A stretch of DNA of 35,605 bases from Jimgerdemannia flammicorona (lineage: Eukaryota). A program made the translations under genes and the position numbers. Numbering within the stretch: position 1 is the stretch's first letter; every line of letters starts with the position of its first letter. The notes under the pieces were generated by a model. The model was not told the DNA's origin. It searched no databases and worked only from the letters and a program-made list of their open reading frames with translations. Positions 72 to 28,652 of this stretch are shown here, in pieces. The stretch lies in assembly GCA_003990765.1 (NCBI GenBank), contig RBNJ01000245.1:1-35605 (forward strand). Reading direction: 5' to 3'.

Positions 72-3000
72 TTACCTGATCCCCCTAGGGGGGCCCCTCC
101 ACCCTACCCCTACTTGATGAAAGACCACTTTGTCTAATATCATCGCCACCTACCCACCACTCTGTTCACAGATCCCTTCTACTAGACCACGATGTTGCCC
201 AACCTGGAGACTCCAACCCACTCACCACCCAGTCAGCAGATCCTCCATCAACCCCTCCCACCTTAATAACTTCTCCTGTAAACCCAACTGTTGCCCTTCT
301 TAAAGACAAAGAGCCAATGTCCAGCTAATCCCACCCACACTACTAAAACTCACCCTACAGTGAACCAACTATTGCCCACACCCCCCACTAGCCAAGATTT
401 CAAATCCTTCCAGCAGCCTCACTTGCTATCTGGCCACTGCTCTATACCCAGCCAATTTCCTACTTCTATTCAAAAGTCCCCCATATCTCACACTCTCCCA
501 GCCAATGTTCTGGCATCTGCCCAAATCCCCCAACTTGCCCCATATTATAACACTACTCACAATCTAATCAGCCACCTTCCACCAGATGCCCTGCATGGAA
601 ATTCAATGTGATGTTCCTCCACAGTATCTACCACCATACTACCCAGAATTTGGGAGGAAGCCACTTCTGCACCTCAGCACTCCATAACCAGACACCTGCC
701 CAGTCCCACTCCTTGTCAATCCTCACTGCCTGTCATCCACTTGGTCAAAGGTTCTGGCCAAGACCCTGCTAACACTCCACTCCATCCCCAATATCAAACT
801 CAGTAAGCAGAGCACCCCCCAGAAGCAATCTGTCCCATTGCTACATATTTAGACCCCAAGGCACCTCCCCCTCATTGCCCCACCAGCACAGGCTGATTCA
901 GTGTGCTCCATCCACCACCCCCCACCAGAAGCCCTTAAACTGCAGCCATCAACTTCCATTCAGCCCCATCAGAGTGAGCAAATCTCCTGAGGACCCTCAA
1001 GGGGAGAATCTCATCTCCTACACCCTCTGTAGCAGTGGCACCCAACCCCCTCCCTGCAATTCAACAGTTCTCTTCAACCAGCAGACTTGCAGGCAGTGCA
1101 ACCTCTTAGGGAAATCTATAAGGCCTAGTCCTCCCCTAACCACCAGAGTTGCAAGGGTATCCCAACTGATCTGAGACCTCCTCCCAGCCCAAATCCAATC
1201 TCTAGCCATCTTTGTCAGCCTCTTCACTACCTAAGCTGGGAAGTCTAAGTGATATGCCACATACCATAGCTTGGGGAATCAGTAGACATTCAGAATCAAC
1301 ACCTGCCCTGCCAGGGAGATGTGGTGACCCCCCCAATCTCGAAGGGCCTCCCTCCAAATGGCTACCCTTCTCTCCCACCATACTTGTGGCAAGACAGATC
1401 CATATACTGAAAGGAAGATACCCAGATACTGCACCACCTCTCTTATAGAGACAATTGTTCCAATGACATCCCCTCCCACCAGTCCATTTTCCAACACCAT
1501 TATCTCACACTTATGCCAGTTGAGTTTCTCTCCAGAGTATACCTCATACCAATCTACTGTTTCCTTAAGTGCCTCTACTTCTGCCACTCATCCAAGTCCA
1601 ACTACCATATTATCTACAAAGGCCCCCACCTTCTACACCATACCATATATAGAGAACCCTTCTACCTTCTAATGTATTCTATCTAGCAAAGGTTCCAAAG
1701 AAAGGGTATAGAGGATAGGAGACAGTGGATCTTCTTGAGGAACTCCTCTTCCTAAGAGAAATACCAAATCTCTATGACCATTACACATTAGCACCACCCT
1801 GCTACCCTCCAACAAATTCAACATAGAAGTCTGAAATCATGGGGGCACACTAATTCTGTCCAGTACCTTGCTCAGCCACATCTGCCAAACATGGTTGTAG
1901 GCCTTCTCTTGGTCCAAGAAGACCAGTCTACCATCCAGTCCACAAGCCTGGGCCCCTTCAATAATATTGTGTATCCAGACAGTCCCATCTCTGATAAGTC
2001 AGCCTCCTACAAAGCTCTGCTGCTCCTCACCCAGACCTGCTGGGCAATCTTCTGTAGCCTTACAACAATCACCTTAGTTACTATCTTCCTGTCCATATTC
2101 AGAAGCATGATCAGCCTCTAGTTCTTCCAGTCCTCCTGCCTCTCCTTGTCTTTGTACAATAAGGCCACCAGCCCCAAGTCTTGCTCCCCAACCTACTTAC
2201 CATTCAGAAGAATATGGTCACAGAGAGTGGCCATTTCACCTAACACTCCAGGGACTTTCACCATCCTCCTCCAGAAGTCCCAAGGTAACCCATCCTCTCC
2301 TGGTACTGTCTCAAGCTTAGTTGCCACAAGGACTCTCTGGATCTCCTCCTCTTAGACTAGTAAGATCATATTACTCAGCCCCTCTACCTGTGGCAGCTCC
2401 CACTCCTCCAGTGTGTCTCCAATTGCCTCCTCATCAGTACCCCCTTTCTCCTCACTCTACAGACCCTGCCATCTCTCCTTCAAAACCCCTAAGATCTGTT
2501 GCATGCTGTGCACTATATCTCCCTCAGCATCAAAGACCCCATCCTACCAATGTCATACCCTCCTAGCTTTGAGGAGCCTAGACAAGTACCTAGTAGGCCA
2601 CTCTCCCTCCTCAAGCCTCTGCCACCATAGCCTGGCAGCCATTCCTTTTAAATGAATCTCCTCCTCCTCTCTCAAAACCTGTTGCAGCTCCACTACCTCC
2701 AATTTCATCTGCTCTAACCTTCAATCCTCCACCTCTTCAGAAGAAAGCAAATCAATCCATTCTATCTGCAATCTCATCAGTCTATTAGAAGTACACCTTA
2801 TGTACTTTCTTCTCTGTCTCTCAGCCTCTCTACCAGCTCCTCCCCAATAGACTCTCACTGCCTCCTTCAACCTCATTCAACAGATTCCCACAGACATACC
2901 CTCATGCCTCCAGATATGAATCCTTGTCTGGATGTCCTCTACCCATGAGTTTCACAACTCCTTCTCAGCCATCAGAGAGGAGTTAAGGCACCAATGTCTG

Positions 3001-3728
3001 GGTCCATCTCCACTCCCCCCAAACTGCCTATGCCCTAATAGCTCCCAGTGATCAGACCACAGGCACCACTCCATTTCCAAAGTCTTCCAAACATCAACAC
3101 CCCAGCATTCAGCCATCAGAATCCAGTCAATTCTCATAACCAAGCCATTCACTCAATGTATGTAAACCCTCTTGTTGCCCCAGTGTGTTCAGTCCATATC
3201 TCCTAAGGAGCTAAGATTCTCTACCTCCTCCTATGCATCCAGACCACTACTCCTCCCACCTGCATTACTCTCTCCATCTGTCCTATCCAATTGTGGATTC
3301 TGAACCATATTAAAATCACCACTCAGAACATCTACTCCTTCCTCCAAGAGAATACCCTCCTCCAGCAGATCCCTAATCTATACAATCCTCTCAACCCTAA
3401 CTACAGAACAGTAGCAGGAGTCAACCCTCACTGGCTCCTACCCTGGCCAATACCAATCTCCTCAGACCAACTGGTCATCCCAGCTCTTGACTCTGTCCAA
3501 GTCTCCTCTATCCTTCTTTATCAGAATTGTCACTTTGCCAAACCAAGCAGTATCCCCTCCCCATTCTCTAGTTCACTCTACTCAATCATCCTCATCTTCA
3601 CACCATATATTCTGCAGTAAAAAGAGATCAGCCTCCAATCCTTTAAGCTAAGTCAAAATGTTCCTATACTGCCCAGATCCCCTTAACTCATTTACATTCA
3701 GAGAGAAAATATTAGTTGTACTGTTTAT
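72..3728 (-). pseudogene. LINE B1 ORF2: APE endonuclease + reverse transcriptase + C-terminal region, disrupted
   Basis: Motifs FSLNVN, RIDW and WSDH (2952..3152), AFVDN from FADD, KLNWHKCE (1279..1587) and GGLGLIDF (1018..1227). Many TAG/TGA stops are present. Confidence 0.85.
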
Positions 3729-5605
3729 AAGAAATAATGTTGTTGATCAATCATATCCTCTACAAATCTGCATATAACTCCTCCTGTACCAAGTCTAAAT
3801 CTTCAGTTGCCCGGGCCTCCAACCCTACCAGAAGTTCAGCCAGTACCCTATCCTCTTTTTCCTCAAAGTCCCCATGATACTCCAGACATTTCTCTTGCCA
3901 GAGTTGCAATCTATACTGCTCAGCCCAATAGTAGGCAGCTCACTCACCAGCAATAACTGCCAGCTCAGCCTCTCTTGTCTTATCAACCTTATATCCCTCC
4001 TCCTCCAGAAAAATTGCAAGAATCTCTCCCTTCAGTGCCTCCACTACCTCATCTCTATGTAGGATCTATACCTGGGACATCCACCAACTCATCCTCACCA
4101 GCTACCTTGCTAACTACCACCACCCAACCCCCTTTTGCCACATTGGGAACCCCAAAGTGAACCCTCTGAGCACTCTTCATCAACATATCCTCTGCTACCT
4201 GATCTCTTGCAGCTAGATCCCACCTGATCAGAGAGGGAGTGTTCTCCATAACTGGGTCCTATACTTCAAATGTGCCATCAGTAAATAGGTCCTTATGTGG
4301 CACCTTCTCAGCCCCTTCCAGGCCCTCCTCCCCAATGCTTCCACTCTTTCCAGCCCAGATACTCGTCTCTATGCCCTCAGGCTTCTCAGCACTCCCAGCC
4401 TCTATCTTCACCCCTCCTTTCATGCTCACCAGCAGCTCCCACTGCCTTTTGCACCCTTGAGCCCTCTCCCACTGCCTCTTATCAGTGTGAATATGCTTCC
4501 CATCAATAATCTCCAGATGCATCAACTCTACATAAAGCTTCCAGGCCTTTGCCTGCTATTCAATCATACCACTCAACTCCTCCAGCACTTCTAATAAGTC
4601 CTCCTCCTCCTCTTTACTCCCCTTCATCCTTGATACCTTATAGACAAATACCCCCCACATCAATACTGAGGGCCAGTCACTCACCTTCTCTGTGGCCTCC
4701 CTCCCTGCCAGTCTAATCCTGATATCAACATTATCTGTTCTAATTGCAGTCCCCTCCCACACCTGGAAGCCAATATCCACTATGTTGCCATACTCTACCA
4801 TTACCTCCTCCACCCTCCTCCTAGTCTCAACCTTTGTCACCATAGGCACCCCCTTCACCAGCAACTGTATCACTCTGGGGTCCCACCTAAGGCACTGTAC
4901 CATAGGGATCACTACTTCCCCAATCATCACTCTAGTCTTCAGCACCTCATCCAGTAGGCCTGCCTCCTCAAAGCCCACCTCAATCCCCTTCAGCCCCTTC
5001 AGGAACTTCACTGAGGCTGCCCCAGCCACCTGCTGCAAGATAAGCCCCAGGACTATCCTTGCAGTCACCACTAAGTCCTGAAAGCACAAGGTAGCTGCAA
5101 ACTCCAAAATTGACTTCTCGAGTAATGGTGCCACCACTAGCCCTATCACACCATCAGCCAGGTCCCCCTTCTGCTTTGGGCCCATCTGTCCAGCCCCATC
5201 ATCAGTAGTCACATATGGATTTTTTTCCAGATTCCCAGTTATGCTACTATCAGCAGTTCCACCACTACTCTCAGCAGCCACCCCACCAGCCCTACCACCA
5301 ACTGGCTGAGGTCCAGCAACTCCAGTTCCTCTAGCTTCTCCAACCTTCTGCTTCCCCTTCCCTCTAGCCTGCCCACCCTGAGTCCCCAATGGCCAACTAT
5401 CATCTTTCAGTATATCTGCAAAGCTTCTCCCTATCTGCCCTCTAGTCTCACCACAAGTGCCACTTCTACTGCCCAAGCTGTCCTGTCCACTCAGACCACC
5501 AAAAGACCCCATCCCAAGCCCATCCCTTTATTGGACATATTGCCAGTCAAAGGCCCCAGATCCATCTGACCTAGTACACATATCTGCTTACTTGCTGGTT
5601 GACAT
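3725..5605 (-). pseudogene. LINE B1 ORF1 (~626 codons, several premature stops)
   Basis: ATG at 5605 (MSTSK*ADMCTRSDGSGAFDWQYV) is in frame with track ORFs 4556..5512, 4259..4525 and 4055..4249. It is homologous to the other ORF1s (CLRWDP...V.G.P). Confidence 0.8.
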
Positions 5606-5684
5606 TGCCTTAATACTTTTCTCCAATAAACAACTTGAAAGTGTGTTGTAAAAGTGTGCATAATGTAAATTATAGTAGAGAGAG

Positions 5685-6040
5685 ATACTGGCTATAGCTC
5701 TCTTGCTCCACACTACAGTATGCCAGGCCTTGATTCCACCAGACCTCCCCTGATCACCAGCCCCTCTAGCAGCTATGCAAGTCTCTACAACAGCTGCAAA
5801 GCTCTTAGGAAGGCCCAGACCAGGCCTCCTCCTCTCCAGATGTTTAGAGCTAGAGGAACCTTGACTAGTCATATTACCAAAACTTAATGGTTTTTGCCAA
5901 AACTTATTGTACCTTATAGATAGACTCCTGCTGTATAATATACACTAATGTGATTGAAATAAAAACTTGAAAACATATTGTCTTTTGCTGAAAGATATCT
6001 GTGTGGCTTAGCTTGCTCTGTGGTTTGATCAAAAGAAGTC
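5685..6040 (-). mobile_element. 5' fragment (5'UTR + ORF1 start) of a family A LINE (copy A3), interrupted by B1
   Basis: 5873-6040 aligns closely with the A2 5'UTR at 30534-30703 (GACTTCTTTTG...GCTAAGCCACACAGATATC). ORF1 begins MTSQGSSSSKHLERRRPGLGLPKSFAA, and homology stops at ~5685. Confidence 0.9.
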
Positions 6041-7544
6041 TCCCCACTAGACACCATGCATGGGCATATCCTCTACCACTTGGCCCCTTGCAGCTGGACT
6101 CTGCCTGATCAGAGGAGTAGGTATAGGAGACTGCTCCCAGACTTCAAATATACCATTCTCATATTAGTCCTCACTCAGTATCTTTCTGGTCTTCTTTAGA
6201 CCCACCTCCATATTCTCCCCATGCCCCCCAGCCCAGACACTCACCAAAGCTCTCCCAGCATCCTCACTACCATCAGTAACCTTTATCTTCTTCACCTCCA
6301 GACTTACCAGCAACTCTCTCTACCTTCTGTTACCTTGGATCCTCTCCTACAGCCCCTTATCAACATGGACCCACTTCTCATTGATAATCTCCAAGTGCAT
6401 TGACTCCACATACACCTTTCAAGACTTCATCCTCTACTCTACCACACCACTCAGCTCCTCTAATGCCTCCAACAGGTCCTCCACCTCCTCACTCCTCTTG
6501 ACTCTTGTCACCTTATACACAAAAGCTCCCCACATCATCACCAAAGGCCAATCATATACCTTACCAGTTGCCTCTCTCCCTGCCAGCTAAATATGGATAT
6601 CAACATCTATTAATTAGAAGGTGGTCCCTTCCCAGACCCTAAACACTATATCAACCACCTCCTATATTCAGCCATAACCTTCTCAACTCTCCTCCTCATT
6701 TCCACAGTTGTCACTATAGGCACTCTCTTCACCAGGAGCTATATCACTCTGGAGTCTCATCTCAAGCACTATACCATTTGGACACACACCTCCCCCACCA
6801 TCAATCCAGCCTTCAGTACCTTCACCAGTGGCCCTGCCTCCTCAAAGCCCACCTCTATCCCTTCCAGGTCCTTCAAGAACTTAACAGAAGCTGCGCCTTC
6901 TACCTGCTTCACAATCAACCCCAGTACCATTTTTGCCATCACTGCCAAGCCTCTGAAGTACAGGATGACTGTGAATTCTGAGATTGACTTCTTGAGTAAT
7001 AGTGCCACTACTAGTCCTATTACACCATCAGCTAGGGCACTAGGCCTCATGCCCATCTCACTACTCAGTACACCATCAGCAGTCCCATCTGGATTTTTTT
7101 CCAGATTGCCCATTATACTCCCATCAGCAGTCACTCCCTCAGTCACTACACCACTGGCCCCACAACTCTGGCCCCCCAGAGGAGCTCTCTCTTGAAGCCC
7201 CTGCTCTATAGTCTTTGTCATTGCCTTACCCCCCCTCAGCCAATTCTCCAGCCCAGCTCCCTGCTGACCTCTCTTTATCTTCTTTATAAAGCTTGCCCTC
7301 TCTGTCCTCTGGCCTCCAGCACCACCCCCTCCCCTACTCTGTCCTCCTGCCAGCAGGCCCCTCATGCTTTCCCTTAAGCTAGAGCCCCTCCCCACATACT
7401 GCCAGTCAAATACACCAGGGCCACTCTGCTTAGTATATATCTCAGAATGCTCGTTAGTCACCATAATACTAGTATTTTTTCTCCAAAAACAGTGTTGAAA
7501 GTGTTACCAGAAGATTGTATAACCTGAATATTATTGAAGAAAGA
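6041..7544 (-). mobile_element. 5' part (5'UTR + ORF1) of a family B LINE (copy B2), interrupted by A3
   Basis: ORF 6769..7464 (MVTNEH...FDWQYV...GNLEKNP...GAASVKFLK) is homologous to B1 ORF1 and continues with stops to ~6041. The 5'UTR has ACACTTTCAA...TTGGAGAAAA like B1. Confidence 0.85.
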
Positions 7545-11704: not shown

Positions 11705-13378
11705 TAAGTATTCTTATTAGATTAATCTAATTGAAATCTCAGCTATTTCATCTATAAATGAAATCCAAGGAGAGTATTTATAAATATACTAATCACATTA
11801 ATATTCTAGTAAATCAGATAAATTCTCTAAGAATACTAGAAGATAATATCAGTAATAAAGATAAAATTCTGGCTCTTATATAAGGTCTTCTCAAGATATC
11901 TAATATTATAATAGTAGTCATAATAATATGAGAGTAGGAAACTTATAGACTATACTTATATAACAATAAGTCTTATTAATAAAAAGATATATTAAGAAAA
12001 TAGTAGCAATATTGAAGATAAGAAAGTATTCTACAGATTATACAGATGAGGCAAAAAGTACCAACAAGGCAAAATTTAATAGAAACTACTATTACTATAT
12101 TGAATATAGATATATATAAAATAATTACTATTATAAAGATAAAGAGTATGATGAAAATAAGTATAGAAGTCAGTGTTGATAATGTGGAAGCAGTAGAAGG
12201 AAATTTGATAGCTAAGAGTAATATAATATAAATACTATCAAAACTGATAACAATAGTGATATATTTTTTTATATAAGTAATATCTATATATATATATCTA
12301 TCAATAGGACTATAGTCAGTAAAAATACTAATACTACTAATAATAATGATATTTAGCTTATAGATTTAGGTACTATATAATATATGTATAACAGTTTACT
12401 AAGAATAGTTCTCAATATATGAGATGTTTGAATGTCTCATATCTATTAAGTTAGGTAATAATATATCATATATACTCAAGAAAGAGAAAATATCAGTATA
12501 TATCTCTATAGGAATATCACAAAGTCTATCAGTATTTTTTAGAATATACTATATACTTTGAAAATAGAAAAGAATTACTTTTTAATTAGCAAAATGATAA
12601 CCCATAGTGATAAAAAAAATATATATACACCTGATGAGAGCAATAGTATATAGTTTGAAGAATAATAAAGAGATTATAATAATATTAAAATGAGGCAACC
12701 TTTATATAATCAATAGTATACCAAGTGATATAAAGATATCTATATATATAATAACTACATCTGATATATCTAATATATGGTATCAATGCTTGGAAAATAT
12801 AGAGAAATTTAACTTAGAAAAGATGATTAGAAATAGATTAATATGAGAATTACTGACAATATACCTTAATGATAAATTTTGTAAGAATTGTATAGTAAAT
12901 AAAGTATTCCAGTATCTTTTTGAGAAGTAGATAATATATATATCCAGTATATTTAATTTAATCTATATAGATATATGTAACTTAATATATACTACTTTCT
13001 ATAGAAAGAAGAGATATTTTATCATATTTATCAATAACTATATATATAAGATATAGGTATATTCCTTATTAGTAAAGAGTAAAGCCTTGGATAAATTCAA
13101 AAGAGTTTTAAGCAATCATAGAGAATTAAACAAAATGTAAAATATATATTATATATTCGAATAATATATATAAATATATCAATAGTATATTTAAGTAGTA
13201 TCTGAGAAAATATAATATATACTATTAGATAACAGTACTATATACACTATAGTAGAATAGTATAGCTGAGCAATTTAACTATATAGTTATGGAAATAGTA
13301 CAAATGATAATCAATGTAACCAGATTATCATATTCTTATTCAACTGAAGTTATCAATATAGTGGTATATATATATAAC
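11705..13378 (+). mobile_element. Outer Ty1/Copia element, gag-protease-integrase part (very eroded; 5' LTR not in view)
   Basis: Relic protease motif IDxGxT..MY (~12358-12390, cf. DSGATxHM), WYQCLE (~12778, cf. WHxRLGH), IYIDIC (~12961), RYFIIFINNY (~13012) and YT..QNxxAE.FN (~13240-13280). Confidence 0.8.
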
Positions 13379-13515
13379 TATTATAAAATAGAGAGAAAGA
13401 AGCAATTGTTTATTAATTAAACAAGTTGTACTTTTACATATTAAGATTAATAATATAGATAAAGATTAGCTATACTACTATATATTAAGATATAATAGAA
13501 ACTTAGATTTTAATA
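13379..13515 (-). repeat. 3' LTR of inner Copia
   Basis: Aligns with 21722-21850. The termini TATTA...TAATA are eroded TGTTG...CAACA, and a purine-rich PPT relic lies at 13516-13526. Confidence 0.88.
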
Positions 13516-15314
13516 CTTCTGCTCAATGAGATATATATGAAAAATAAAACTAACAAATTATAACTAATGAGATACTATCTAAATAACTAAAAAAAAAATC
13601 TAAATTCCCCACTTATAAGTATGAAAATAGATAAAGAATATAATAAAAGATCAATAATATAGATTTATTCATAAATAAAGAGATATCAGTAATATTAGAG
13701 TAGCTTATTAGTACTCCAAAAGACCTTCTATTATTGTCATATTGTCATTATTGCTATTGCTTTTTGCTTACTAGTATAAAATTTTCTGTAAGTTCTATTT
13801 CTTATATATAAGTTAAATTTTGTCTTAGAAAGAGCTTTAGTTAATAAATCTGCCATTATATACTCTGTTAGAGTATATTTAAGATATATAGTACTGTTTT
13901 CCATATATTTATATATGAAGTAGTACTATATATTGATGTATTTCATTCTAGTATAATATATAGGATTTTTTGCCAAAGCTATTATAAAGTGATTGTCTTG
14001 TTGAAATAGTGTAAAGTACTATATAACTCTTTTAGCAGTTTTTAAAGCTATATAGCTTTCTTTATTACTATTGATAATACTTAATATTTTACTTATATAA
14101 AGGATATCATCATGGAAGATTACTTGTATATTTGTTATAAAATAGCTCTGTTTTTACTAATTTAAAAAAGATATATATATAGTCATAGAGCGCTAATTGT
14201 CAAGATCTGATCTTATCTATATTACATATACCAGTTAGTCTTATAGTTCTCTCACATTATCCTTATTATCATTATCCCAACTGAGTATATAGTATGCCAT
14301 ACTTTTAATATACTAGAAAATATTCTTAATTATCATCTTATATATATTATTATAGTAAGATAAGTATTGTGCTACTTTGTTAACTATATATAATATATTG
14401 GGTCTCATTCTGAGTATAAGATATATGAGAGGTCTCATAGTTTACCAATAGAGATATTATTATCTTTAGATATAGTATTACTAGACTTCTTTAGTCTTAC
14501 AGATATCTCAATAGATATTCTAACTAGCTTATATTTACTTATACCAAATTGTTCAAGTATAGTCCAAATATATATAGCTTATAATAGCTATATAATATAT
14601 TTATACCTATTATATATAATTGATATTTTAAGAAGATAGAATATATTATCCATATCTATCATCTTGAATTTCTGATATAGTGTTATTTTGACTTCATTAA
14701 TCTCACTTGCTATTCTAATCACAATAATATCATCTATTTAAATTTCTAGATATACTATTCCTGAAAATATATACTAGATATATATATATAAGTAAGCCTT
14801 ACAATACTTAAATCTATTATTTAAGAGATATTTATTGATCTGCTTATTTTAGAGATATATTACTTACTTAATTCTTTATAATTCTTTATATAATTTATAT
14901 ATAAGCTTATTTCTGTCATTATTATATAATTTATATTTCATTGACTGAGATATATATAGCTCTGATTACAAGAAGTATTCTAAGTAAAGTGAGCTTGAAT
15001 ACTAAAGAAAAGGTCTTATTATAGTCTATATCATATCTTTATAAATACTCCTTTATTACAAATTGAGCTTTATACTACTCTCTCATTTTATCAGCTTTAT
15101 GCTCAATCTTATAGACCTATTTCAATCTTATAGCTTATCTATCTGCTAAGAGAGAGACTAGATCCCAGATATCATTCTCAATTAGTAAATCATATTTCTC
15201 CTCTATAGTCTTTTTCTACTCCTTTTTATCATCCAAGTTTATGGCTTTATTGTAGTATACTGGTTCACTAGTTATTGTAATATAGGCACACTTATAAGTA
15301 CTAATATAATTCAC

Positions 15315-16841
15315 TCCCATATATCTAAGCCACCAGGAGGGTGAGTATCCCAAATTTTGGAGGCCACAAGCATAGGCTCTAAGGAGCACTAATAGGTGTA
15401 TCTCATCTCTTAGGTATAGGAGTCCCATATGGTCTTTTCAGCATGGCCATAGCTTCCAGTTTCAGCAACTTACAAAGATTTCAAGAATTTCAGGCAAGAT
15501 GACAAGACAGTAAGATGGTAAGACAGCAAGATGGCAAGATGAGCAAGATGACAAGACAGGCAAGAGGGGTAAGAGGGGTAAGATGGACAAGATGGATAAG
15601 ATGGACAAGATGGCAAGACAGGTGACAGGAGCAAGATAGGCTGACAATAAGATAGGCAACATGGGCAATATGGACAATATGGGTGATATGGGCAATACAG
15701 ATAATACAGACAATATGAACAACACAGGCAACACAGGCAGGCAAGATGGGCAAGATGGACAAGATGGGCAAGATGGGCAAGATGGTAAGACAACAAGATG
15801 GATGATATGGATAAGACAGGCAGATAGTAAGATAGACAATAGAGGCAAAATAGGCAAAATAGGCAATATGGGCAATATGGGCAATATAGGCAATATGGAC
15901 AATATGGGCAACATGGGTGGGCAAGATGGGCAAGATGAGCAAGATGGGCAAGATGGGCAAGATGGGCAAGATGGGCAAGATGGCAAGATGATAAAATGGA
16001 TGATATGGGCAAGATAGGCAAGATAGGCAAGATAGACAAGATTAGTAAGATGGACAAGATGGATAAGATGGCAAGATGGTAAGATGGGTGACATGGGCAA
16101 GATGAGCAGATGGCAAGACAGATAATATGGACAAGATGAACAAAACAGGCAAAATGGGCAAAATGAGCAAAATGGGCAATACAGATAATATGGGTAGATA
16201 ATATGAGCAATATGAGTAATACAGACAATATGAGCAATATGAGTAATATGGGTAACATGGGTAATATGGGCAATATGAGCAACATGGGTGGGCAAGATAA
16301 GCAAGATAAAAAAGATGGACAAGATGGCAAGATGGGCAATATGGGCAAGACAGGCAGATGGCAAGACAGGTGATATGGGCAAGATGGGCAAAATGGGCAA
16401 AACAGATAACATGGGCAATACAGGTAACATGGGCAACATGGGTGAGCAAGATAGACAAGACAGGTAAGATAGATAAGATGGGCAAGATGACAAGATGGCA
16501 ACATGAGCAATATAGGCAATATGGGCAGATAAAATAGATAAGACAGGCTAGATAGACAAGATAGAAGACACTAATAGGAGTAGGTCAGGTATACTAGATG
16601 CCAAGTACTTGAGGTGGTTGGAGCTCACAACCCATACTCACTAGGTGAGGCAGGTCAGGTAAGAGGATCTAGTTACTCAGGCAGTGAGGTTGCAACTCAT
16701 ACCCTAAAGGTATAAGGCTAGATGAGTGTAAAGGTGGGTTGAGATTAGAATGGAATGGAGCTACTGATGTTATATGAGAACATGTGGCATATTATAGATA
16801 GTTAATAAATGAGGCTACAGCCTATAGAAAAAAAAAAAAAA
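15315..16841 (+). mobile_element. Non-autonomous VNTR-containing retroposon (SINE/SVA-like architecture)
   Basis: AATAAA at 16804-16809 and poly(A) at 16828-16843. TSD AAGTACTAATATAATTCAC (15296-15314) versus AAGTACTGATATAATTTAT (16842-16860), three transitions apart. The Copia sequence is continuous once it is removed. Confidence 0.85.
15491..16568 (+). repeat. Degenerate 9-bp minisatellite (GGGCAAGAT / GGGCAATAT, with 8-bp variants)
   Basis: Directly visible tandem array of about 1.08 kb with alternating blocks of the two unit types. Confidence 0.97.
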
Positions 16842-17595
16842 AAGTACTGATATAATTTATATAATATTTGCAGTTGCAATGAGATGTCTTAGATATGTCC
16901 TAATAACCTCCTAAATCTACTTCAACTTTATTTTGTAGCCTAGATCTATACTTTTTCTTACCTTTTAGAGAGGTATTCTCATTACCATTCTTATCTATAA
17001 TTTCTATAATTCTTAGCTCCAATAGTCTCATTAGTATATATATAGGCTACACTACTACTGTAAGAGGGTTGCTTTTTAGGATAACTGTTACGTAGTTCTG
17101 GAAGGGTTTTCGGGAAGTTCTGGATATTCTGGAAGTCCATTTTCTTATGGTCAAGATCAATTTCATATAGAGTACGTCCTCTACACTTATTGATTTCTAG
17201 ATCGGGTTAACATCTCAACCAAAGTCCTTTTTCAGACTAGTTCTGGATGTTCAGGATTTTCCATATTTCAGGAGTTCAAGAAACTAAGACCAGCTTAGTT
17301 GAATTGGCGTATTGCTGCAGACAATACCCAATTAGGAAATTTCGTGATGGAGTTAGGAGTGGGACCTAACAGGGAGTAGATTTACTTAAGAGTGGTTTGT
17401 AGGTTATTGAATAGGTTTATTTGCTATTCATGATATTGCTATACTAGGAGTAGTTGTGTAAAGGGATATTGTGGGGAAGTATTCAAGAATGTTCTTGTGT
17501 ATTCGAGTCTCAGATTCTGAGGTCTGGGGGGTGGTATTTATACTAGTGAGGAGCTATCTGGACTATACTGAATATGGATGTAGCACTAAGTGCCT

Positions 17596-17701
17596 TGCTG
17601 AGTCAGAATGCAGTCATGTAGTACAAGTGTGATCTAACATATCAAGAGATTGTCTGACTGCTGAGTCAGTTCACAGTCACATCGTACAAAGCTAATCTAA
17701 C
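17596..17701. promoter_or_regulatory. 63-bp-period duplication, each unit with TGCTGAGTCAG (AP-1/Gcn4-type site)
   Basis: TGAGTCA at 17599-17605 and 17662-17668, just upstream of the minus-strand TATA box. Confidence 0.55.
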
Positions 17702-17731
17702 TATATTATGACTGCTAGGCTATTTATGGGT

Positions 17732-18829
17732 TTAGGTGCTATCTGGGTAGTCCTCAATGACATCACCATTGATGACATCATCTCTGATGAAGTAGTCATC
17801 TAAGAAGAGTAGTTCATGGATTACTTCTCCTTGTTTGCTGAGGTAATAATACATTGGGACCTCGTCTCTATCCCATAAGATAGTATTGTCTGTCTCATAG
17901 GCTGGATAAGGTATTGGTGGATGAAGGATGGGTGTATTGTCTTTGCTTTCATTGGATTCGCTATCTGCATACCTTCTATAGGTTACAGCACTATGAGTTG
18001 CAGGATTGTAGTAAGCTAGTGGCTGTGGTTCATGTCACTCGTACTCAGGTGGTGGAGTGGTTGGTTTGATCTCAAGGGTTGTCTGGAGGTACAGGTTGTG
18101 TTCTCTGGTCTCTTCATTGTAGTTGAAGTAATTAGAGATGAATGCAGGTTGATATTCATGCCAGTGGTCATTGTCCCAATAAGTCTCATATACAGTTATG
18201 AACTGTTGTAAGTTCATCGGCAAGGTTGGCGGAGTGATCAGGGTTGGTAGAGATCCTTGGCTAGAGGTCATGTTGGTGTCAGAGGGACCATTGTCTTCTG
18301 CTTCATCTTCATCAAAGTGGATTATATTGTAGATGTCCTTCATGGCATATCCAACTTGGGGCATTTGCAGGATATGATCATTGGAGTGTGGAAAGGTTCT
18401 GTCTGTGGTTTTGATATACTTGAGGTACTTCTGGTTGAGTTCTTGTATCATGTCATCGATTTGGCCATAGGACAAAGTAGCAACCATTTTGCTGGTAGTA
18501 ACTCGAAGGCGGGGAATAATGGTACTGTACTTATAGAAGAGTTCTCAATGTTTGCAGGCAATGAGCTTCTGGTGTTGAGACATCTGGGTAATGTCTGTAT
18601 TGTGGTGGTGTTTGATCATGTCTTCCAGGAGGCAGCCAATCTGGTAGTAGCTTGAGATTTGTCCGATTCAGTGGGCCTTGCTAAGTATGTTCAGAGTATT
18701 CCATCGGGCTTCCATGAAGTAGAGGGGTGCTAGACTATGGATATTCATGAGGGGCAGAGGGGGTGTGGCTTGGTTAACAATGGCATTCCAAATGTCAGCG
18801 CGGATATGGATATAGATCTTGGTGGTCAT
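17732..18829 (-). pseudogene. 365-codon ORF of unknown function inside the LTR-like element, with three in-frame TGA
   Basis: Manual translation MTTKIYIHIRADIWNAIVNQ...DVIEDYPDST* in a single frame with no frameshift. It includes track ORF 18035..18487. TGA codons at 18668-18670, 18545-18547 and 18035-18037 are each one transition from CGA. Confidence 0.8.
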
Positions 18830-18946
18830 GTTTGTATATTTGGACATTGTAGTTGTTGTTTGTTTGGGTTCTCTGATTCGATGTGTCTTGGTACTCGGTA
18901 TATATGCATTTGGTCCTGATTGGTAAGATTCCGTTTGTGTAAATCT

Positions 18947-19010
18947 TGTGCTCTGTGACTTCGTATTGACTCAGCTTTATGTGCTGTGACTTCGGTTTGA
19001 CTCAGCTTCA
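18947..19010. promoter_or_regulatory. ~31-bp tandem duplication, each unit with TGACTCAGC
   Basis: TGACTCA at 18967-18973 and 18998-19004, upstream of the LTR ORF ATG. Confidence 0.55.
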
Positions 19011-21705
19011 TGATCAAGCAGGTGATTTCCAGATTTGTTCAGAGGTCGCGTGTGATTTCAGTGGCTTGGAGGTTGTGTGCTTACAACTACTGGTATAGAT
19101 ACTGAGGATATCTTTTTCAGAATTTTAACTACTGTTCTGAATATAGAAGTTTTTTACTCATCTTTGAAGTTAGTATAGATGTCACTGGCTATATTATTGA
19201 GTTGGATATAGAGATTGGAATTTTTATATAAATTTTCTACTTAGTCTCCTTGAACTGAATATTATAAGAGATAATTATATAGTATTTCTGTAAGTTCTAT
19301 AGTCTTATACAGCTCTGTTATATTTAAGAAATATATACTTATCTGACTTAAGCTTAAATTTATCTTTATTGTTACCTTTATTTAGAATATAAGTCTTACT
19401 TCCAAATATCTATAAATATGAGATATCTGACTTAGATTTACTTTATAATTCTTCAGAGATAAGATTAGTATCATTTCTAGATTATTGATTATTGCCAGAT
19501 TTCTTACTAAAAGCTTGAGAAATATAATAATTTTGGATATATGTATACTACTGTATTCACTGCTTTGGCCCAAAAGGAGTATAATAGCTAGCTATATTTA
19601 TTATCATTTGAGCCATCTCTGCCATTATTTAATTAAAGTATTATATTCCACAGTTCTGCTGAGATATATAGGGTACCATTATAGTGTATTGGATACTATA
19701 CTTCTTTAAGAAGTATCTGAAAACTTTATTGATATATTTCTTACCATTATCAGAGCATAGAGTCTATATCTTATATCTTATTTTATTTTCTATAATTGTC
19801 TTAAATTCTTGAAATTTTTCAAATATCTCATTCTTCTCTATAATAGACTTTATAAGTATAATTATCAATAAAGATAATAAAATATCTCTTTTTAGAGTAT
19901 ATTAGAGTTTATATAAGACTATAGATATTTATATATATTAGATCAAGAATATCAGTTACTTGCTTCATCTATTTCTGAAAAGGTCACTGAGAAGTCTTAT
20001 TGACTATATATTTATTGCAAAAGCTGAAATCTGGTGATATATAGTTTAATAATATATATACAGATTTATTACTTATTACCTGTTCTAGGCTTATCTTACT
20101 GATATATTTTAAGTATTTATACTACATATACTAGAGATTCTCTCTAATTATAGTTGCAGAATATATAGATAATATATTACTTAGTATATTGTTAATTATA
20201 AGTTTCTCTTTTTTGATATATATATTAACTTCTTATTATTCTTTTGATTGATTATTATTATAATATTTAGATATATATTTACTCCTCTGTCTCCTTAGAC
20301 TATTATCTGGCCTATTGAGAAGAGATTATTACTTATACATATCTAATATATATAGTATATTCATGAAGGTATCTAAAGGTTTATCAATATTGTTCTTATC
20401 TTAAATATAGATGATATTATTATTACCCAGTTTAATAGATATAGAGTACTCAAACTTCTCATATATAGAGGACTACTTACAGAACTATTATATACTGTAT
20501 TATACTAGAATCTATGAGCCAGACTTCTTCTCTATATATATAAGCACTATTCAGTATATAGTTTATATTGGTACTGATACTATTGATATTAATATCAGTA
20601 TTTTTCTCTATCTGAAATTATTTTTCCAAATTCACCCCTATATCTCTCTTTATATATCATAGGTTATTACTTCTGTAAAGAATAAACCTTTACTACCACT
20701 ACTTTCATTACTAGTATTTATTATATTTGTCTACTATTGTTCTTATTACTATTAAATGCTCTTTTCTTTCTTATAATTACAGTTCTACTCATAATATCTA
20801 TACTTATTATAGTTAAAGTATTTACTTTCAAATTTCTGACTATTATATTACTGGCTTTGATTTTGCTCTTTTGTTTAGCTTGCCTTTATCTTATCTATAT
20901 ACTCTGTAGAAGACTTTCTCATCACTATCCTCATTAGTATCATTGCCATTACTACTCAGTCTTGATTTCTTTAAAAGGTATATAATGATATACTTATAGT
21001 CCAATAATCTACTAAATTCCTTCATAGTAGTGATAATAATGTTGTATGTCTTAGAAAGGCCTCATACATATAAGGACCAGGACTTGTCTTTGTCCTTAAT
21101 AGTATCTATCAGCATAGATATAAGAGAGTTTACTTAATTTGCTAGCTCATCAACTTAATTGGTATAGTCCCAGATACTCTCTTTAGACTTTATTTAGAGA
21201 TTGAACAGTTGTACTTTTAGATGAAATCTATTTGATACAGATGTCTATTGATAGTAATTATATAAAATCTTTCAGATATTATTCTCTATTATAGAATTGA
21301 TTATAAGCTTCTTTTGTATATTTTAAAGAATGAATATAATCTCTCTTAGTACTTTGTGATATTTTGTAGTATTATATCTCATTATTTATATCTGTGACTT
21401 TCAGTAGTCCTCTAAACCACATTCCTCTAAGAGATTCTTCATATTATATCTATATAGTTTAATTCTTACTATTGAAGATAGAAATAATTCTCTTTAGTAT
21501 TATTATTAATACTACTAAAAGAATGGTTATAGTTATAACTATCATAATAGATGTACTTATATTATCAGTATCTGTTCTGAGTTCTGTTCTACTTATACTA
21601 TCTGAAACTAGTATACTTCTACTACTAGTATTAGTCAATATTGTATAATATAGTATATTATATATATTTGAAGAATATCTATATTATTATTTACTTTTAT
21701 CTGTA

Positions 21706-21717
21706 GAGCTCATAATC
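21706..21717 (-). promoter_or_regulatory. Primer-binding site relic of inner Copia
   Basis: GATTATGAGCTC lies 4 nt inside the 5' LTR, two transitions away from GGTTATGAGCCC, the PBS common in fungal Copia elements. Confidence 0.65.
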
Positions 21718-21721
21718 TTTT

Positions 21722-21850
21722 TGTTGTAGAATAGAGAGAAAGAAGTTTGATTAAGCAAGTCATGCTTTTTTATATCAAGATTGATAATATAGATGAAAAT
21801 TGACTGTACTACTATATATTGAGATATAATAAAAACTTATATTTTTAATA
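21722..21850 (-). repeat. 5' LTR of inner Copia
   Basis: TGTTGTAGAATAGAGAGAAAGAAG...TTTTAATA, a direct repeat of 13379-13515. Confidence 0.88.
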
Positions 21851-23982
21851 ATAACTGATATATATTTTGAGTATTAAGCAAGAAATCCAGCAATAATAGT
21901 AAGTGTTCCAGAGATAATGATCTTACTTCTAAAGAATTATAGAGTAGAATAAAGAAAGATATATATATACTTCTATACATATTTAGATATAATATATATA
22001 TTCTTAATAAGAGTAATGCTAATCAGTATAAGTTTAAGCTAAAGTGAGTAGATATATATTTCTTAAATATTTTAGCAAAGTATATCAACTCTGGAATCTA
22101 TATAAATATTATATATATAGTAATCTTATATAATATATAGTTCAATAAAAATAAAAAAAAAACAGAAACTCTATATAAATAAATTTATCAGAACCTCTAC
22201 TTTAATATCTTAATATATAAGTATATATAATATCTAATATCAATCTCTTCAATAAAGTAAAATTATTTTCAACTATTATATATATATATCTAAGTAAAAG
22301 TTACCTAAGCTAAGTATAATAAAGAGTATAATTTACTTATTGAGAATGATATATGAGATTTAGTATAAGAATGATAGAAGTATAGAGTAATATAAAGTAT
22401 ACTTTATTGTTCAAGGTTATTTATAAGATTATAGTATTAACTATAATGAGATATTTTTGCTAATATTTAAGCTTACTTTTCTGAGAACACTTCTTATAAT
22501 TGGTACTATATATAATCTGAAAATCTATTAGATAGATATAAAGATGGCTTTTCCTAATAGTGATATAGATATGATTATATATTTGCTAACTATAAGAATA
22601 TAACCAGAATAACCTATTATATAAACTATATAAAGAACTATATATATGGTATCAAGCAAGCAGTTTATTTATAGAGTAGAAAAATCAATAAATATCTTTT
22701 TAATAATGGCTTCATATATTGTAAAGTGAATAACTATATATATATTCAATATTATACTATTAGAGTAGCTTTCATCAATATTTGGATTAATAATATAATC
22801 ATTATTATAATGAAGAACAGATTTAGTAGAGTTAAAGAAGTCCTGTATAAGAAATTTAAGATGACTAATATAAGTAACATATTCATTGTTTTGAAGATAT
22901 CTATTATATATAATGAGAGTATATATATTATATATATATATATATCTCACAGTTAGCTTCTATTCAAGTTATCTTAGAATAATTCAGTATAAGTAAATAT
23001 GTATAAGCCTATTAATACTCCTATGGACATATCTGTGAAGTTAAAGAAGCTTAAGACAAATGATAATAATAATAATATTCTTTATTGATAAGTAGTCAGT
23101 TCTCTCATATATGTACATATCTTATATTAAGAATAAGATCTGATATTTTATATATTATAAATAAGATAGTACTATACTCATCATACTATAACAATTGGTA
23201 TTAGATTATTATTAAGAGAATTTTTAAATATATTAAAGAAATAGTATACTATATACTTACTTTTGATAAAGTAAGTAGAAGCAATAGTAATAATAATAAT
23301 AAGAATAGCATACAACTATTCAACACATATAATACTGATTGGACTAGAGACTTAGATGATTACTGATCTATAATTAAATATTTCTATTAGTTAAATAATA
23401 AAGGAGTTATTTTATAACAAATATATAAGTAGAATTTAATAGTAATATTATTTATATAAGTAGAGTACCAAGTATTATCTATAGTAATAAAGGAAGCTAT
23501 TTGGCCCTACCAATTACTAAAGGCTCTAGGCTTTGATCAGAAATGAAACCCTATACTCATCTATTAGAATTACTAATTTATGATTGCTATGGCAAAGTAC
23601 TCTATATATTACTCCAGAATAAAGTATTTAATGTATAGCACTATTATATAAGGGAGTGCATGAAGAATGAGACTATATACTTGAAATATATCTCTATGAA
23701 GTATATGATTACAGATTCACTTAACAAAGTTCTTTTGAGATCTAAATTCCAGCAATGTACTAAAGAAATGAGTTGTATAGTAAACTATATACCAGCAATA
23801 GATAATGGATAATTATGTGATATTTCATAACAAAAAGGAAGCAGAAAAACAATACAATATATCTCTCTCTTCAAGCATTATTTTGCTCTATTCCATTCTA
23901 CATTTGAGGTTTTCTACCATTAGGACCTATCTATATTCTTCATTTTCACTATAGTTTCATATGTTTTAAGCATAGGTAGATA
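21851..23982 (+). mobile_element. Outer Ty1/Copia element, integrase C-terminus, RT-RNase H and 3'UTR
   Basis: Resumes after the TSD ATAAC. Relic D.KMAF.NSD (~22530-22570), YGIKQA (~22645), YSRIKY (~23610) and MITDSL.K (~23705). The 3' LTR is not reached before LINE A1. Confidence 0.8.
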
Positions 23983-24150
23983 GCATTCTTTTACAAACCA
24001 TTCTGAGCGAGCTAAGCCACACAGACAACCTTTTGTGAAAAGCAACACATTTTCAAGTTTTCACTTCATTCATACTGGTGTGCAAGGTGCGGCAGAAATC
24101 TGTCAATAATTCACAGCAAGTTTCATCCAAATCTGTCAAGTTTCAGTGGT

Positions 24151-24900
24151 ATGGCGACCCAAGGCTCATCAAGCTTGGAGTGCCTAGAGAGGAGGAGGCC
24201 TGGCCTGGGCCTACCCAAGAGTTTTGTGGCAGCAGCTGGTCAAGGAGGGGCTGGGGGACAAACAGGAGGTCGTGGATCAGTAGCAGGACTGGGTGGATGG
24301 CACACAGTGGTGGGGAGTAAGCTGGTAGCTGCTAGGCCTGCAGTTGGGGGGCAGCAGGGGCATAGTGTTAAGAGGGGTGGACATCAGGTGACTGGTCAGC
24401 TGACTGGCCAGAGACCCAGCAGGGGTCAGGGGTCCGGGGGTGTGATGGCTGGGACTGGCTTTCCTGGGGCTGGGCCAGTGGCTGGAGGTGAGACTGCTGG
24501 TAGTGCAGTAGCTCCTAGCGAGATGGTGGCTGGTATATCTGGTAGCAAGAACAAGGCAACCCTGGCAGTAGAAACTGGAGAGCTGGTGGTATAACCATTC
24601 TTCCATAAGTCAGTGTCATCATGGGCAGTCTCCACCAACTTCTTGGGCCTTGGTCTGTCAGTCAAGGAAGTTTTACGGCTGGTGGGTGAGGAGGTTGCTG
24701 GGGCTGAGTCACTGAGGTATATCCCCTTGGCGGAGGCAGTTGAGGTCAGATTTGTTGAGGAGGAGGCCATGGTGAAGGCCTTGGAGAAGGGGTTGATGGT
24801 CAAGAATGTTAAGGTGGGGATGGCGAGGTGCCTGAGATGGGATCCATATGCAGTGAGGTTAGTGGTAGAAGGACTGCCAACGCTGAGTAGGCAGGAGACT
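24151..24900 (+). pseudogene. A1 ORF1, 5' part
   Basis: Track ORFs 24151..24594 and 24613..24993 are homologous to 29751..30533. Confidence 0.88.
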
Positions 24901-25022
24901 TTTTTTTTTTTTTTTTATATTACCTTGGACTCCTTTATTACGAACTATCTAATACAATATCAACTAACCACAACCACTACTAACATCATATAACATATAT
25001 AAGTAGAGCCCTTCAACCAACT

Positions 25023-28000
25023 TCAACCAACTCCTTCCTTCCATCTCACCCCTTGATCATCTAAAATCAGATACCCTCGACTCCTCTGTACAATGTCCTG
25101 TACCTTCTTTAAGGCCCCTGATTGAAGTTGCTTCCCCTGATACCACTATCCCTGAACCACCTCCTGGAGAAGCCACCTCCACTACTCCACCATCTCACCA
25201 ATCTCCATCCATAGGTCCTGTTCAAAAATCCACCACCAATGTACTGCCATCAAGACCCAGACCCCCAAAACTTGACCAAGGCCCCCCCATATATCACCAA
25301 TTTCCCCTATTAGCTGGTGCTTGACCACCAGACTGGTCAGATCCTCTGCCCTATGCCTCTCAGAGCCCCAGTAATCTTCCAAACACTGCCAAAATCCTTC
25401 CACACCTGGGCAGGCCCCCAGAATATGTTCTGGTGTCTGAACCACTCCTCTATCAATCTCATCACACCACTTGCAGTCCCGACAGCCATCCACCTCCATC
25501 CAGCCAGTCCAATAGCCCAGCATCACATTATGTCTTAAAAATCACCACCAAACCACCCAATATTTGGATGGCACCATCTAGTGTACTGAGGTTCCCCAAT
25601 TCCAAATTCTAACCCACTCCCAGTCTTCACTGATACCAGCTCTCTGCCACCCAGGCAGCCATCTCTCCAGAGGGCCAGACCTGATCCACTCCATTGCCTC
25701 AATCAGGGAGTACTCCTTCAGACTATGGCCACCAACATGAAGGTCTCCCAGTCGCCACCACCTCTGCTCAGGATTCTTACCCACCTCAATCTCTGGGCCT
25801 GTCAATCCCATGGCCAGCCAGGCCTCTACAATACCCCACCAGAACTCCTTAAACCACAGTCAGCCTATACTTCTAACTTGAAGCAAGCCCCACATATTCT
25901 TCCAAACCTCACCACGAGGGCAGAACCAGACCTTCCAATTGTCCATGGTCAGCCTGCCCCAACCTTCTTCACCTAGTTCCATCATTCGGCACCACCACCA
26001 GCCCCGAAGCACCTTCAGCCAGCATCTGAAATCCACCAACCCCAGGCCTCCATCTGAAGTCCTCATTACTAAAGTCTCCCATCCAATCTGCAGACGCCTC
26101 CCCTGTCATAACCACCCCTCAACAATCTTCTTCAACTGCTGCACCACCCACCCTGGGAAATCCAGATGATAACCCAGATACCACAGTTTGGGCAGCCAGT
26201 ATACATTCAAGACCACTATCCTGCTGACCAAGGAGAAGCTCCTCCCTGACCAACCTGTCAGAGCACCTTCCAGCCTCTGAATTAAACCACACCACCACTC
26301 CTTTGGCAGGACTGTCCCATATACTGAGAACCAGATACCCAGATATTGAACCACACTCCCTATGGCTACCAATTGTCCAAATTGTCTATGACCCCCCAGG
26401 CCAGCACCAAGTTCCATTGTCTTGCACTTGCCCCAATTCAACTTTGCCCCTGCCAGTCTCTCATACTGTCCAACCTCTTCTTGCAGGGCTTCTACATCCT
26501 CCTGACTACCCAACCCTACCACCATATCATCTGCAAAGGCACCCAGCTGCCAGACCACATCTTCCATCTTCAGTCCTGAGAGCTGCCCCTTCAGCCATGC
26601 CAGCAGAGGCTCTAGAGAAAGTACATAACGAAGGGGGGAGAGAGGATCCCTCTGCAGTACCCCTTGCCCCAAGGCAAACTCTGGTCCACACCATCCATTC
26701 ATCATGACCACTGCTTGGCATCCCCGTACTAAGCCCATCAGACACCCTGCCTCTATAACACCAAACCCAGCCCTCCTCAGAACAGCCTCCAGATAACTCC
26801 ACTGCACTCTGTCATAGGCCTTCTCTTGATCCAGAAAGACCATCTGGCCATCCACCCACCAGCTCCTACAGCTCTCTAAAATATTCTACACCCAGGCAGT
26901 ACTATCTCTGATCTGCCTCCCCTTGACAAAGCCATGCTGCTCCTCCCCAACTAGTGTACCAACATACTGCTGCATCCTCCCTGCTAGAATCTTCGACACC
27001 AACTTTCTATCCACATTCAGCAGCATAATAGGCTGCCAATTATGCCACACCCATCGATCCCCCTTTTCCTTATATAGAAGAGAGACCAGCCCCAAGGGAC
27101 CATTGCCTATCCAGCAGCCCTCCTTCAGAACAGCATTGGCCATCTCCACCAACCAGTCACCAAACTTGGCCTTGAACTCCTTCCAGAATTCCCAGGGCAA
27201 CCCATCCTCTCCTGGTGACAAACTAGTCTGCATCTTTCTCAGTACTTCCAATACTTCATCCAGGGATACCTTTCCCATGACTGCTTCCCCTATCTCAGGT
27301 ATCACTGTCACCAGCCAACTGTTCACCATATTGTCATTATCTACCTCAAACTCTGTGCCCTCCGACTACTCCCTGCCATCCTGCCAAAGAGCCTACCATT
27401 GGCCAGATATCTCCCCTAATATCAGTAATTCCAGAGACCTCTACTCCATCTTCACACAAAACTGAAGCCTAGCTATATCATACTCTCCTGGCCTTCAAGA
27501 TACCAGACAGATATCTCATCGGTCTCTCTCCTTCTTCCAACTGTCTGACTTGTAGCCTGGCCAGCAGGCCATCTACCACCCTGGTCTCTGACACCTTTAA
27601 ATCTACCTGCAACTCAGCCACCTCTAATGCCAAATGGTGGCACACCTCCCCAGACAAGTTCCCCTTTTCCAAGAGCTTCAATCACCATCTCAGCCCCTTC
27701 TCCACCCTCCTTTATTTGTCCTTCTGTTCATTCCCAGTCACTTCTCCAACATCATGCCAGTAAGCACCAGCCAAGTGTTTGAATTTACCCCACCATTCCG
27801 CTATCAACTGCCCTTCATTCTGCCATTGCCTAACTTCCTGTTTCATAACTACTACAAAATTGTCCCTCTCCTTCTTCTTCTGAGTAAGGCCACATTGAGG
27901 CACCAGTGTCCACTACCACTGCCTGTATCTTGGAATCTCCCGCAAACCTCCACTCCCCAGTGATCTGACCAAGGGCACCAGTGCACCTCAGCAGTGTCCA

Positions 28001-28652
28001 AAACATTACCCCAGCACTCCGCCACTAGCACCCAGTCTATTCGTGTCTCAACCAAGGTTGTTCCCACTGGGTGCTACCTGGTGAAAGGTCCCACCACATC
28101 TCCCTGCTGCTGATGAACACCATCCACCAAGCCCATGTCTCACTCCACCTGAAGCCATTGAGAAAGTCCATGTGACACCATGACTTCTGCTCCACCATCA
28201 GATCTGTCCAGTGCTCGATCACGTACCATATTGAAGTCCTCCTCCAAAATGTCCAAAGCAACTACCTCCCGACCATCCCATGCCTGCCATCCCTCAACCC
28301 ATTGCTTTCACTCTCTGCTAACTGCAGGGAGGTAAACCGATCCAACCGTCAAACCATCACCTGCCCCTCCTTTTAGTCTTCCCCAAATTAGTCTGTCACC
28401 GAAGCTCTCCACCTCCACCAACTTGTCTTTGTCTATACCAATTAAGATTCCCACCTGCATATTCCAACCTGCTCCACCATACCATTCTTTACTCCAAATC
28501 TCATAGTCTGACTCACCATAAGCCCGAACATCCTGAAGAAACATAACATCATACCTCCTGACTTTAAGCCATCTGAAAAGCCGCCATCTTTTAACACCAT
28601 CCTGCAATCCATTGACATTGATTGATAAAATACGTAGATTGTTCATCATCAT
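25023..28652 (-). pseudogene. A2 ORF2: APE endonuclease, RT, CCHC domain (stops, local frameshift ~27450-27880)
   Basis: LRILSINVNGL, FLQDV, TRIDW, WSDH, SPGEDGLP, DQEKAYDRV, FADD, and CKWC...TPEHILGAC. Confidence 0.93.

Follow-up and report, generated by a model that had tools for sequence, protein, structure and literature searches.

A minisatellite-cored poly(A) retroposon in the early-diverging fungus Jimgerdemannia flammicorona, a candidate LINE-dependent analogue of the hominoid SVA group

The RIME/ingi and NARTc/L1Tc systems of trypanosomatids include gene-less poly(A) retroposons that keep the terminal signals of a long interspersed nuclear element (LINE) and depend on LINE enzymes for their movement. 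According to the available text of two papers, the variable number tandem repeat (VNTR) composite retrotransposons (SVA, LAVA, PVA, and FVA) are confined to hominoid primates, have in common a 5′ region of CT-hexamer/Alu-like type, are built on organised arrays of GC-rich 30-50-bp units, and depend on L1 in trans for their mobilisation (PMC4432496; PMC7353768). Among fungi, non-autonomous poly(A) retroposons are described, in the text available from each source, as Eg-R1 of Blumeria (10.1101/242271) and as the chimeric WEIRD/MGL retropseudogenes of Magnaporthe (PMC2104539). The element considered here lies in a 35,605-nucleotide stretch of Jimgerdemannia flammicorona DNA (assembly GCA_003990765.1, contig RBNJ01000245.1, positions 1 to 35,605 of the forward strand), hereafter the window. 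It is an insertion of about 1.5 kb (15315-16843) built around a 9-bp minisatellite, and it is best explained, with moderate confidence, as a member of a low-copy, non-autonomous, LINE-dependent and minisatellite-cored retroposon family in this fungus.

All parts of the element are given along the plus strand. The 5′ copy of a target-site duplication, the 19-mer AAGTACTAATATAATTCAC at 15296-15314, is followed by a unique head of 178 bp (15315-15492), a minisatellite core of 1.07 kb (15493-16565) with about 120 units of consensus GGCAAGATG (RRYAANAYR), and a unique tail of 261 bp (16566-16826). An AATAAA polyadenylation signal (16804-16809) stands 17 nt ahead of the A run, which forms a poly(A) tail of 17 A at 16827-16843; the final two of these may belong to the duplication. 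The 3′ copy of the duplication, AAGTACTGATATAATTTAT, occupies 16842-16860. Both 19-mers were read directly and agree at 16 of 19 positions, the three mismatches all being transitions (A/G, C/T, C/T). The last three bases of the 5′ copy (15296-15314) may themselves be part of the element, which would leave a duplication of 16 bp with 15 bases identical. An original prediction, made from the letters of the window, had proposed this arrangement of head, VNTR, tail, AATAAA, and poly(A) within a 19-bp duplication differing by three transitions, and direct reading reproduces it almost base for base.

Several properties set the element apart from its surroundings. The 3′ 19-mer, sought on either strand of the 35.6 kb with three mismatches allowed, matches only itself and the 5′ copy, against an expectation of 0.01 from 100 shuffles. 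Runs of 12 or more A occur twice in the window, once as the tail of the element and once as that of LINE-A, a full-length LINE described below. GC content changes abruptly at the borders of the element: the flanks have 27-31%, the element 37-46%. Because of the duplication, the poly(A), the layout, and the GC step, 15315-16843 is read as a discrete insertion and not as a plain minisatellite. That the insertion and its retroposition are real is very probable, and there is good support for its having arrived via RNA, by target-primed reverse transcription.

The core itself is ordered. In TRF, the array shows a period of 9 over 15526-16527, with 114 copies, 69% matches, and the consensus GCAAGATGG; a unit-by-unit parse yields 120 units, 92 of them exactly 9 nt long, with the consensus given above. 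Within these 92 units, positions 5 and 7 are A without exception, positions 1, 2, 3, and 9 show G>A or C>T in 16-29 units, and position 6 may be any base (G 47, T 28, A 9, C 8). The position-6 variants are clustered in blocks (GGCAAGATG runs, GGCAATATG runs, and GGCAACATGG GTG junctions), and since these blocks recur four times the array has a higher-order structure. All three plus-strand frames of the array are broken. The longest plus-strand open reading frame (ORF) of the element, 125 aa at 15640-16014, reads GQDGQD.../GNMGNM... and matches Pfam Collagen at 6e-8, a compositional match that arises because glycine falls at every third residue. Minus-strand ORFs of 361 and 366 aa extend over the array because the purine-rich strand cannot give stop codons on its complement.

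No coding capacity for mobility was seen. A Pfam scan of the 122 window ORFs of at least 75 aa gave no reverse transcriptase (RT) or endonuclease match inside the element, the Collagen match being the only one there. ARAGORN found no tRNA genes in the whole window, Rfam returned no matches over 15100-17000 at E values up to 1 (7SL/Alu included), and the folding of head and tail is not unusual against shuffles (z -0.59 and -0.87, respectively). With no tRNA, no Rfam match, and ordinary folding, the element is not an RNA polymerase III short interspersed nuclear element, a class that was rejected in the absence of any head derived from tRNA, 5S, or 7SL. A 5′-truncated LINE with a coding remnant was likewise set aside, the element having neither an RT/endonuclease Pfam match nor similarity to the window LINEs beyond its extreme 3′ end. 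The earlier observation that tRNA A/B boxes and RT coding are missing thus holds in these scans.

Candidate partners are found in the same window. LINE-A (24900-30705, minus strand) is full-length at 5,806 bp, with ORF1, ORF2 (APE-type endonuclease and RT), AATAAA, and A17; it lies within an exact 14-bp duplication (24886-24899 and 30706-30719), and its AATAAA is 17 nt before the A17. As self-comparison and junction reading indicate, it interrupts an older, related copy, LINE-B (23986-24899 plus 30720-35605, plus strand), to which it is 68-70% identical. A third copy, LINE-C, is likewise minus-strand and occupies the window from its first base to about 6040. Across the window LINEs, AATAAA stands 17-21 nt before the A run, and the 3′ untranslated regions (UTRs) of all three are about 300 nt long and lack any 9-bp array. 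RVT_1 is matched in Pfam at E 6.5e-23 and 3.4e-12, the APE-type endonuclease covers the full Exo_endo_phos profile with 21.3 bits, slightly below the Pfam cut-off, and the closest solved structure is human L1 ORF2p (1e-20). The nested LINE-A with its exact duplication marks recent LINE activity, and its A17, AATAAA, and 14-bp duplication indicate that suitable enzymes are present and were recently active within the same 35 kb. LINE-A is accordingly a representative of the candidate mobilising family, not a part of the element. Of the proposal that the element parasitises local L1-type LINEs, the partners are therefore in place, namely L1-like LINEs with APE-type endonuclease, poly(A), and duplications; a dispersed non-autonomous family with a common 5′ end and a VNTR of variable length is a supposition.

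These LINEs have further features of their own. ORF1 and ORF2 share the start context TTTGGCAA(C/G)ATGG, at 30531-30539 (minus strand), 30754-30762 (plus strand), and in the 29743 region (minus strand). ORF2 begins 7 nt past the ORF1 stop with MVDFGFM, and about 370 residues that match nothing in Pfam precede its endonuclease domain. An 830-bp direct repeat with 72% identity (4425-5257 and 6303-7131) flanks the 5′ end of LINE-C.

The extreme 3′ end of the element bears some likeness to that of the LINEs. All three LINEs terminate in ...TAGATAGTT..AATAAAGGAGTCCAAG..CTAT-A(n), and the element terminates in ...TAGATAGTTAATAAATGAGGCTACAGCCTATAG-A(n). A BLAST search of the element against the window returned, apart from the element itself, a single match, 55 nt long, between its extreme 3′ end and a LINE 3′ end. 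Under lenient scoring, the tail is colinear with the 3′ UTR of LINE-A (z 5.1, 0 of 300 shuffles). Among 666 window segments, the LINE-A 3′ end ranks first against the final 120 nt of the tail and second against the whole tail; when 40 nt are compared anchored at the end, the ends of LINE-B, LINE-A, and LINE-C rank 13, 402, and 1276 of 67,752. The comparison is suggestive of a weak resemblance between the last 40-120 nt of the tail, approximately, and the LINE 3′ ends.

At the 5′ side, head and LINE share only small pieces, CTAAGCCAC(A)CAG near the 5′ end and the start-codon context ...TTTCAG/GGCAA.ATG. Colinearity of the whole head with the LINE 5′ UTR was considered and dropped, as MAFFT aligns the two and the statistics are unsupportive. 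The repeat unit offers a second point of contact. GGCAANATG occurs 32 times in the array and three times elsewhere in the window, where 1.26 occurrences would be expected overall. All three non-array sites are on the sense strand of a LINE: at the ORF1 start of LINE-A (TTTTGGCAACATGG), at the ORF2 start of LINE-B (TTTGGCAAGATGG), and inside ORF1 of LINE-C. The array starts 178 nt from the 5′ end of the element, and LINE ORF1 starts about 170 nt from the LINE 5′ ends. Compared with the 40 nt ending in the first array unit, the LINE-B ORF1 start region ranks fourth of 6,768 segments. These similarities, read from sequence, hint that the element could have descended from a LINE of this group and that its array could have grown from the start-codon 9-mer. 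Alternatively, the 9-bp unit may just mimic a strong start context.

Evidence from outside the locus comes from one sequencing run, the contigs of a soil metagenome (X1), which contains a 0.07 share of the sampled words of 13300-18900; no RNA run is listed. The X1 contigs were compared at 80% similarity or more over 13300-15510, a range covering the head and the sequence on its 5′ side. Of 44 contigs at this level, 39 are less than 90% alike, and most are pieces of Copia at depth 2-3. One contig of 311 nt and depth 14.4 matches the head at 15324-15491 with 23 differences (86%), the seven other listed pieces having depths of 2-3. The contig stops exactly at the border between head and array and carries 143 unlike bases upstream; its match begins 9 nt inside the proposed 5′ end, which places the break within 3-9 nt of that end. 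An 86% match with different upstream sequence means that the head is present elsewhere in another context. Of the 17 differences listed, 12 have A/T in the window and G/C in X1, so the copy in the window has decayed further, in agreement with the three transitions in the duplication. The last 30 of the upstream bases show no significant match to the window or to LINE 5′ ends, and their alignment to the 5′ flank of the element, scored so as to tolerate transitions, is equalled by 83 of 1000 shuffles. The original prediction had named copies extending 5′ into an RT ORF as a sign of a truncated LINE; copies that extend 5′ may exist, since the X1 contig does run on by 143 bases, of which the last 30, those compared, match no LINE 5′ end in the window.

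Together, these data favour a LINE-dependent family with a minisatellite core, for which the following course may be proposed. An L1-like LINE would have supplied the endonuclease that nicked an AT-rich target and the RT that copied there a polyadenylated transcript made up of the head, roughly 120 purine-rich 9-nt units, the tail, AAUAAA, and poly(A). Insertion of this copy would have left a target-site duplication of 16-19 bp. The site lies in repeat DNA of greater age, with the integrase remnant of a decayed Copia on one side and the RT remnant on the other, and GC-to-AT transitions would have accumulated in the copy since. The 3′ end, and possibly the repeat unit too, may derive from the resident LINE family. 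Direct observation covers the anatomy, the duplication, poly(A) and AATAAA, the lack of coding and of a Pol III head, suitable LINEs nearby, and a diverged copy of the head in another sample; mobilisation in trans by the LINE, family status, and the LINE ancestry of ends and repeat unit are inferred.

A number of results weigh against this interpretation. The 143 upstream bases of X1 could mean that full-length copies exceed this one, and contig depth, the 14.4 of the head-bearing contig included, says little about copy number. Within the 35.6-kb window, the head and the tail each occur once, and no second full copy was seen. A sequence index of the other analysed windows, queried with the tail and with the whole element, gave no look-alikes. 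Neither head nor tail accompanied any of the 34 loci that three repeat units matched in a metagenome scan. Patterns of head and tail likewise found no matches in collections of genome contigs and viral contigs. As for LINE ancestry, one unrelated segment scores no worse than the LINE-A end against the whole tail, nhmmer profiles of the 5′ and 3′ ends of the window LINEs do not find the head and find the tail only at E 3.8, and between the head and LINE 5′ ends there is no significant similarity (z 1.7 and 0.3).

The alternative that survives best, though it is unlikely, is that the insertion is a 5′-truncated copy of something longer, either a LINE with a minisatellite in its 3′ UTR or a longer non-autonomous element, so that the apparent head would be internal. 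The X1 contig speaks for such an origin, since it continues for 143 nt upstream of the head match (in a single contig, depth 14.4) and the matching part sets in 9 nt downstream of the proposed 5′ end. Truncation at the 5′ end is usual in LINE-type retroposition, and the end of the tail is like LINE 3′ ends. However, the 3′ UTRs of the three window LINEs, at about 300 nt, are without the 9-bp array, neither ORF2 nor the 3′ UTR of these LINEs resembles the head, and the last 30 upstream bases of X1 match neither the window nor LINE 5′ ends.

Next in rank, and also rather improbable, is a one-off processed pseudogene, retrocopied from a host transcript (an mRNA or a non-coding RNA) in which one region was repetitive and possibly collagen-like, (Gly-Gln-Asp)n. 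Processed pseudogenes, too, are marked by AATAAA, poly(A), and target-site duplications, and the 125-aa GQDGQD... ORF (15640-16014) with its Collagen match (6e-8) would suit a collagen-like source, as would an unrelated metagenome contig in which this 9-bp unit codes for a real collagen-like protein. Against such a source, all three plus-strand frames are broken, the position of the glycine codon varies in a third of the units, no start resembling a signal peptide is present, and a diverged relative of the head occurs at higher depth in another sample (X1). The collagen-encoding contig is of interest in itself. Designated L009 (94.8 kb), it holds at positions 1-6025 the longest array among the 34 metagenome loci, within an ORF of more than 2000 aa. 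In this ORF, the 9-bp unit known from the element encodes GQD/GKD repeats of collagen-like type, and a conserved globular module, present in four or more copies, alternates with them. The ORF is unrelated to the element, its source probably being a giant virus or a bacterium.

A chimeric retrocopy, produced by template switching from the 3′ end of a LINE RNA to an unrelated repeat-bearing RNA, is very improbable. It would explain why the LINE-like stretch is limited to the last 40-120 nt or so of the tail, and chimeric retropseudogenes are known in the fungus Magnaporthe, according to the available text of one report (PMC2104539). In the nhmmer comparison, though, the LINE-like part of the tail diverges far too much to have been copied from one of the window LINEs, and no sharp junction is visible. 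Minisatellites are frequent in repeat-rich DNA, yet an ordinary one lying by chance between similar 19-mers and beside an A run is scarcely credible here, given a duplication far above chance (two found against 0.01 expected) that abuts the poly(A) exactly, AATAAA 17 nt upstream, and the step in GC at the borders (27-31% in the flanks against 37-46% inside).

The site that received the proposed retroposon is itself composite. The host Copia lies on the minus strand and retains a gag remnant (approximately 20956-21262), an integrase SH3-like domain (approximately 19286-19439), and an RT (14931-13768) that aligns to a second, plus-strand Copia copy in the window. In the second copy, the gap from integrase to RT measures 165 bp (22162-22327), versus 4,039 bp (19233 down to 15194) in the host copy. 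The element and one duplication account for 1,546 bp of the latter. Removal of the element was expected to restore the Copia spacer, an expectation that is not confirmed, as 2,493 bp remain against the 165 bp of the second copy. Its placement between the integrase and RT remnants stands; placement in the spacer proper is doubtful in view of an extra block of about 2.3 kb of other composition around the site. The flanks of the element (15195-15314 and 16861-17100, 27-31% GC) do not align to the second Copia copy. Beyond them, a block at approximately 17100-19150 has 40-45% GC, in surroundings of Copia with about 20%, and contains minus-strand ORFs of 100-169 aa that match nothing in Pfam; it may be another insertion or a captured gene. 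Given the leftover gap, with this 40-45% GC block included, the element may sit in another insertion and not in the Copia spacer itself.

Base composition differs strongly among the repeats of the window. The Copia remnants (12000-15000 and 19200-23800) have about 18-25% GC, compared with values reaching 45-64% in the LINEs. Transitions prevail among the differences between the window and the metagenome contigs (A>G 35, T>C 34, C>T 29, and G>A 18 over the whole run). A strong GC-to-AT decay seems to have affected the old repeats, in a manner reminiscent of repeat-induced point mutation or of the deamination of methylated cytosine.

A bolder version of the favoured reading can be formulated, though it is improbable. 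An SVA-like family would have evolved independently in an early-diverging fungus as a LINE-derived, gene-less element whose core is the amplified 9 nt around a LINE start codon (GGCAA.ATG). About 100 start codons in strong context per transcript could then load ribosomes and put the RNA beside nascent LINE ORF2 protein. Ribosome docking has been proposed for Alu, and here the minisatellite would serve instead.

Among described retroposons, RIME and NARTc resemble the element in being gene-less, in carrying poly(A), and in their LINE dependence, which for the element is presumed. They differ in that the similarity of the element to LINE ends is weak at 3′ and not significant at 5′, and in that RIME and NARTc are not known to have a minisatellite core. 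Eg-R1 and WEIRD/MGL, as far as the available descriptions go, share with the element a fungal host, the poly(A) type, LINE dependence, and the lack of an RT, and differ from it in that these descriptions contain no long internal minisatellite (10.1101/242271; PMC2104539). The original prediction knew of no described fungal equivalent, and a non-exhaustive search of open-access literature text found none.

In its general design, the element comes closest to the SVA group. Both are gene-less and consist of a unique 5′ part, a dominant central VNTR, a unique 3′ part, AATAAA, poly(A), and a flanking duplication. Mobilisation in trans by an L1-type LINE is presumed for the element, and its non-random blocks of unit variants recall those in the VNTR of the hominoid elements, as portrayed in the available text of one study (PMC4432496). 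The differences are equally clear. The units of the element are purine-rich and 9 bp long, compared with 30-50-bp GC-rich units in the same source (PMC4432496). The CT-hexamer/Alu-like 5′ region is missing from its head, which was read directly and gave no Rfam match. Nor is there any sequence relation or demonstrable assembly from fragments of other transposable elements, and the host is a fungus. Since the defining 5′ domain and a sequence relation are both lacking, the element is an analogue of the SVA group and not a member of it. If the favoured reading is true, such an analogue would imply that VNTR-cored, LINE-dependent architectures evolve repeatedly, and would provide a second, independent system for studying the role of a long internal tandem repeat in mobilisation efficiency, escape from silencing, or ribosome association. 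Elements of this kind would also seed minisatellites across the genome and mark recent LINE activity.

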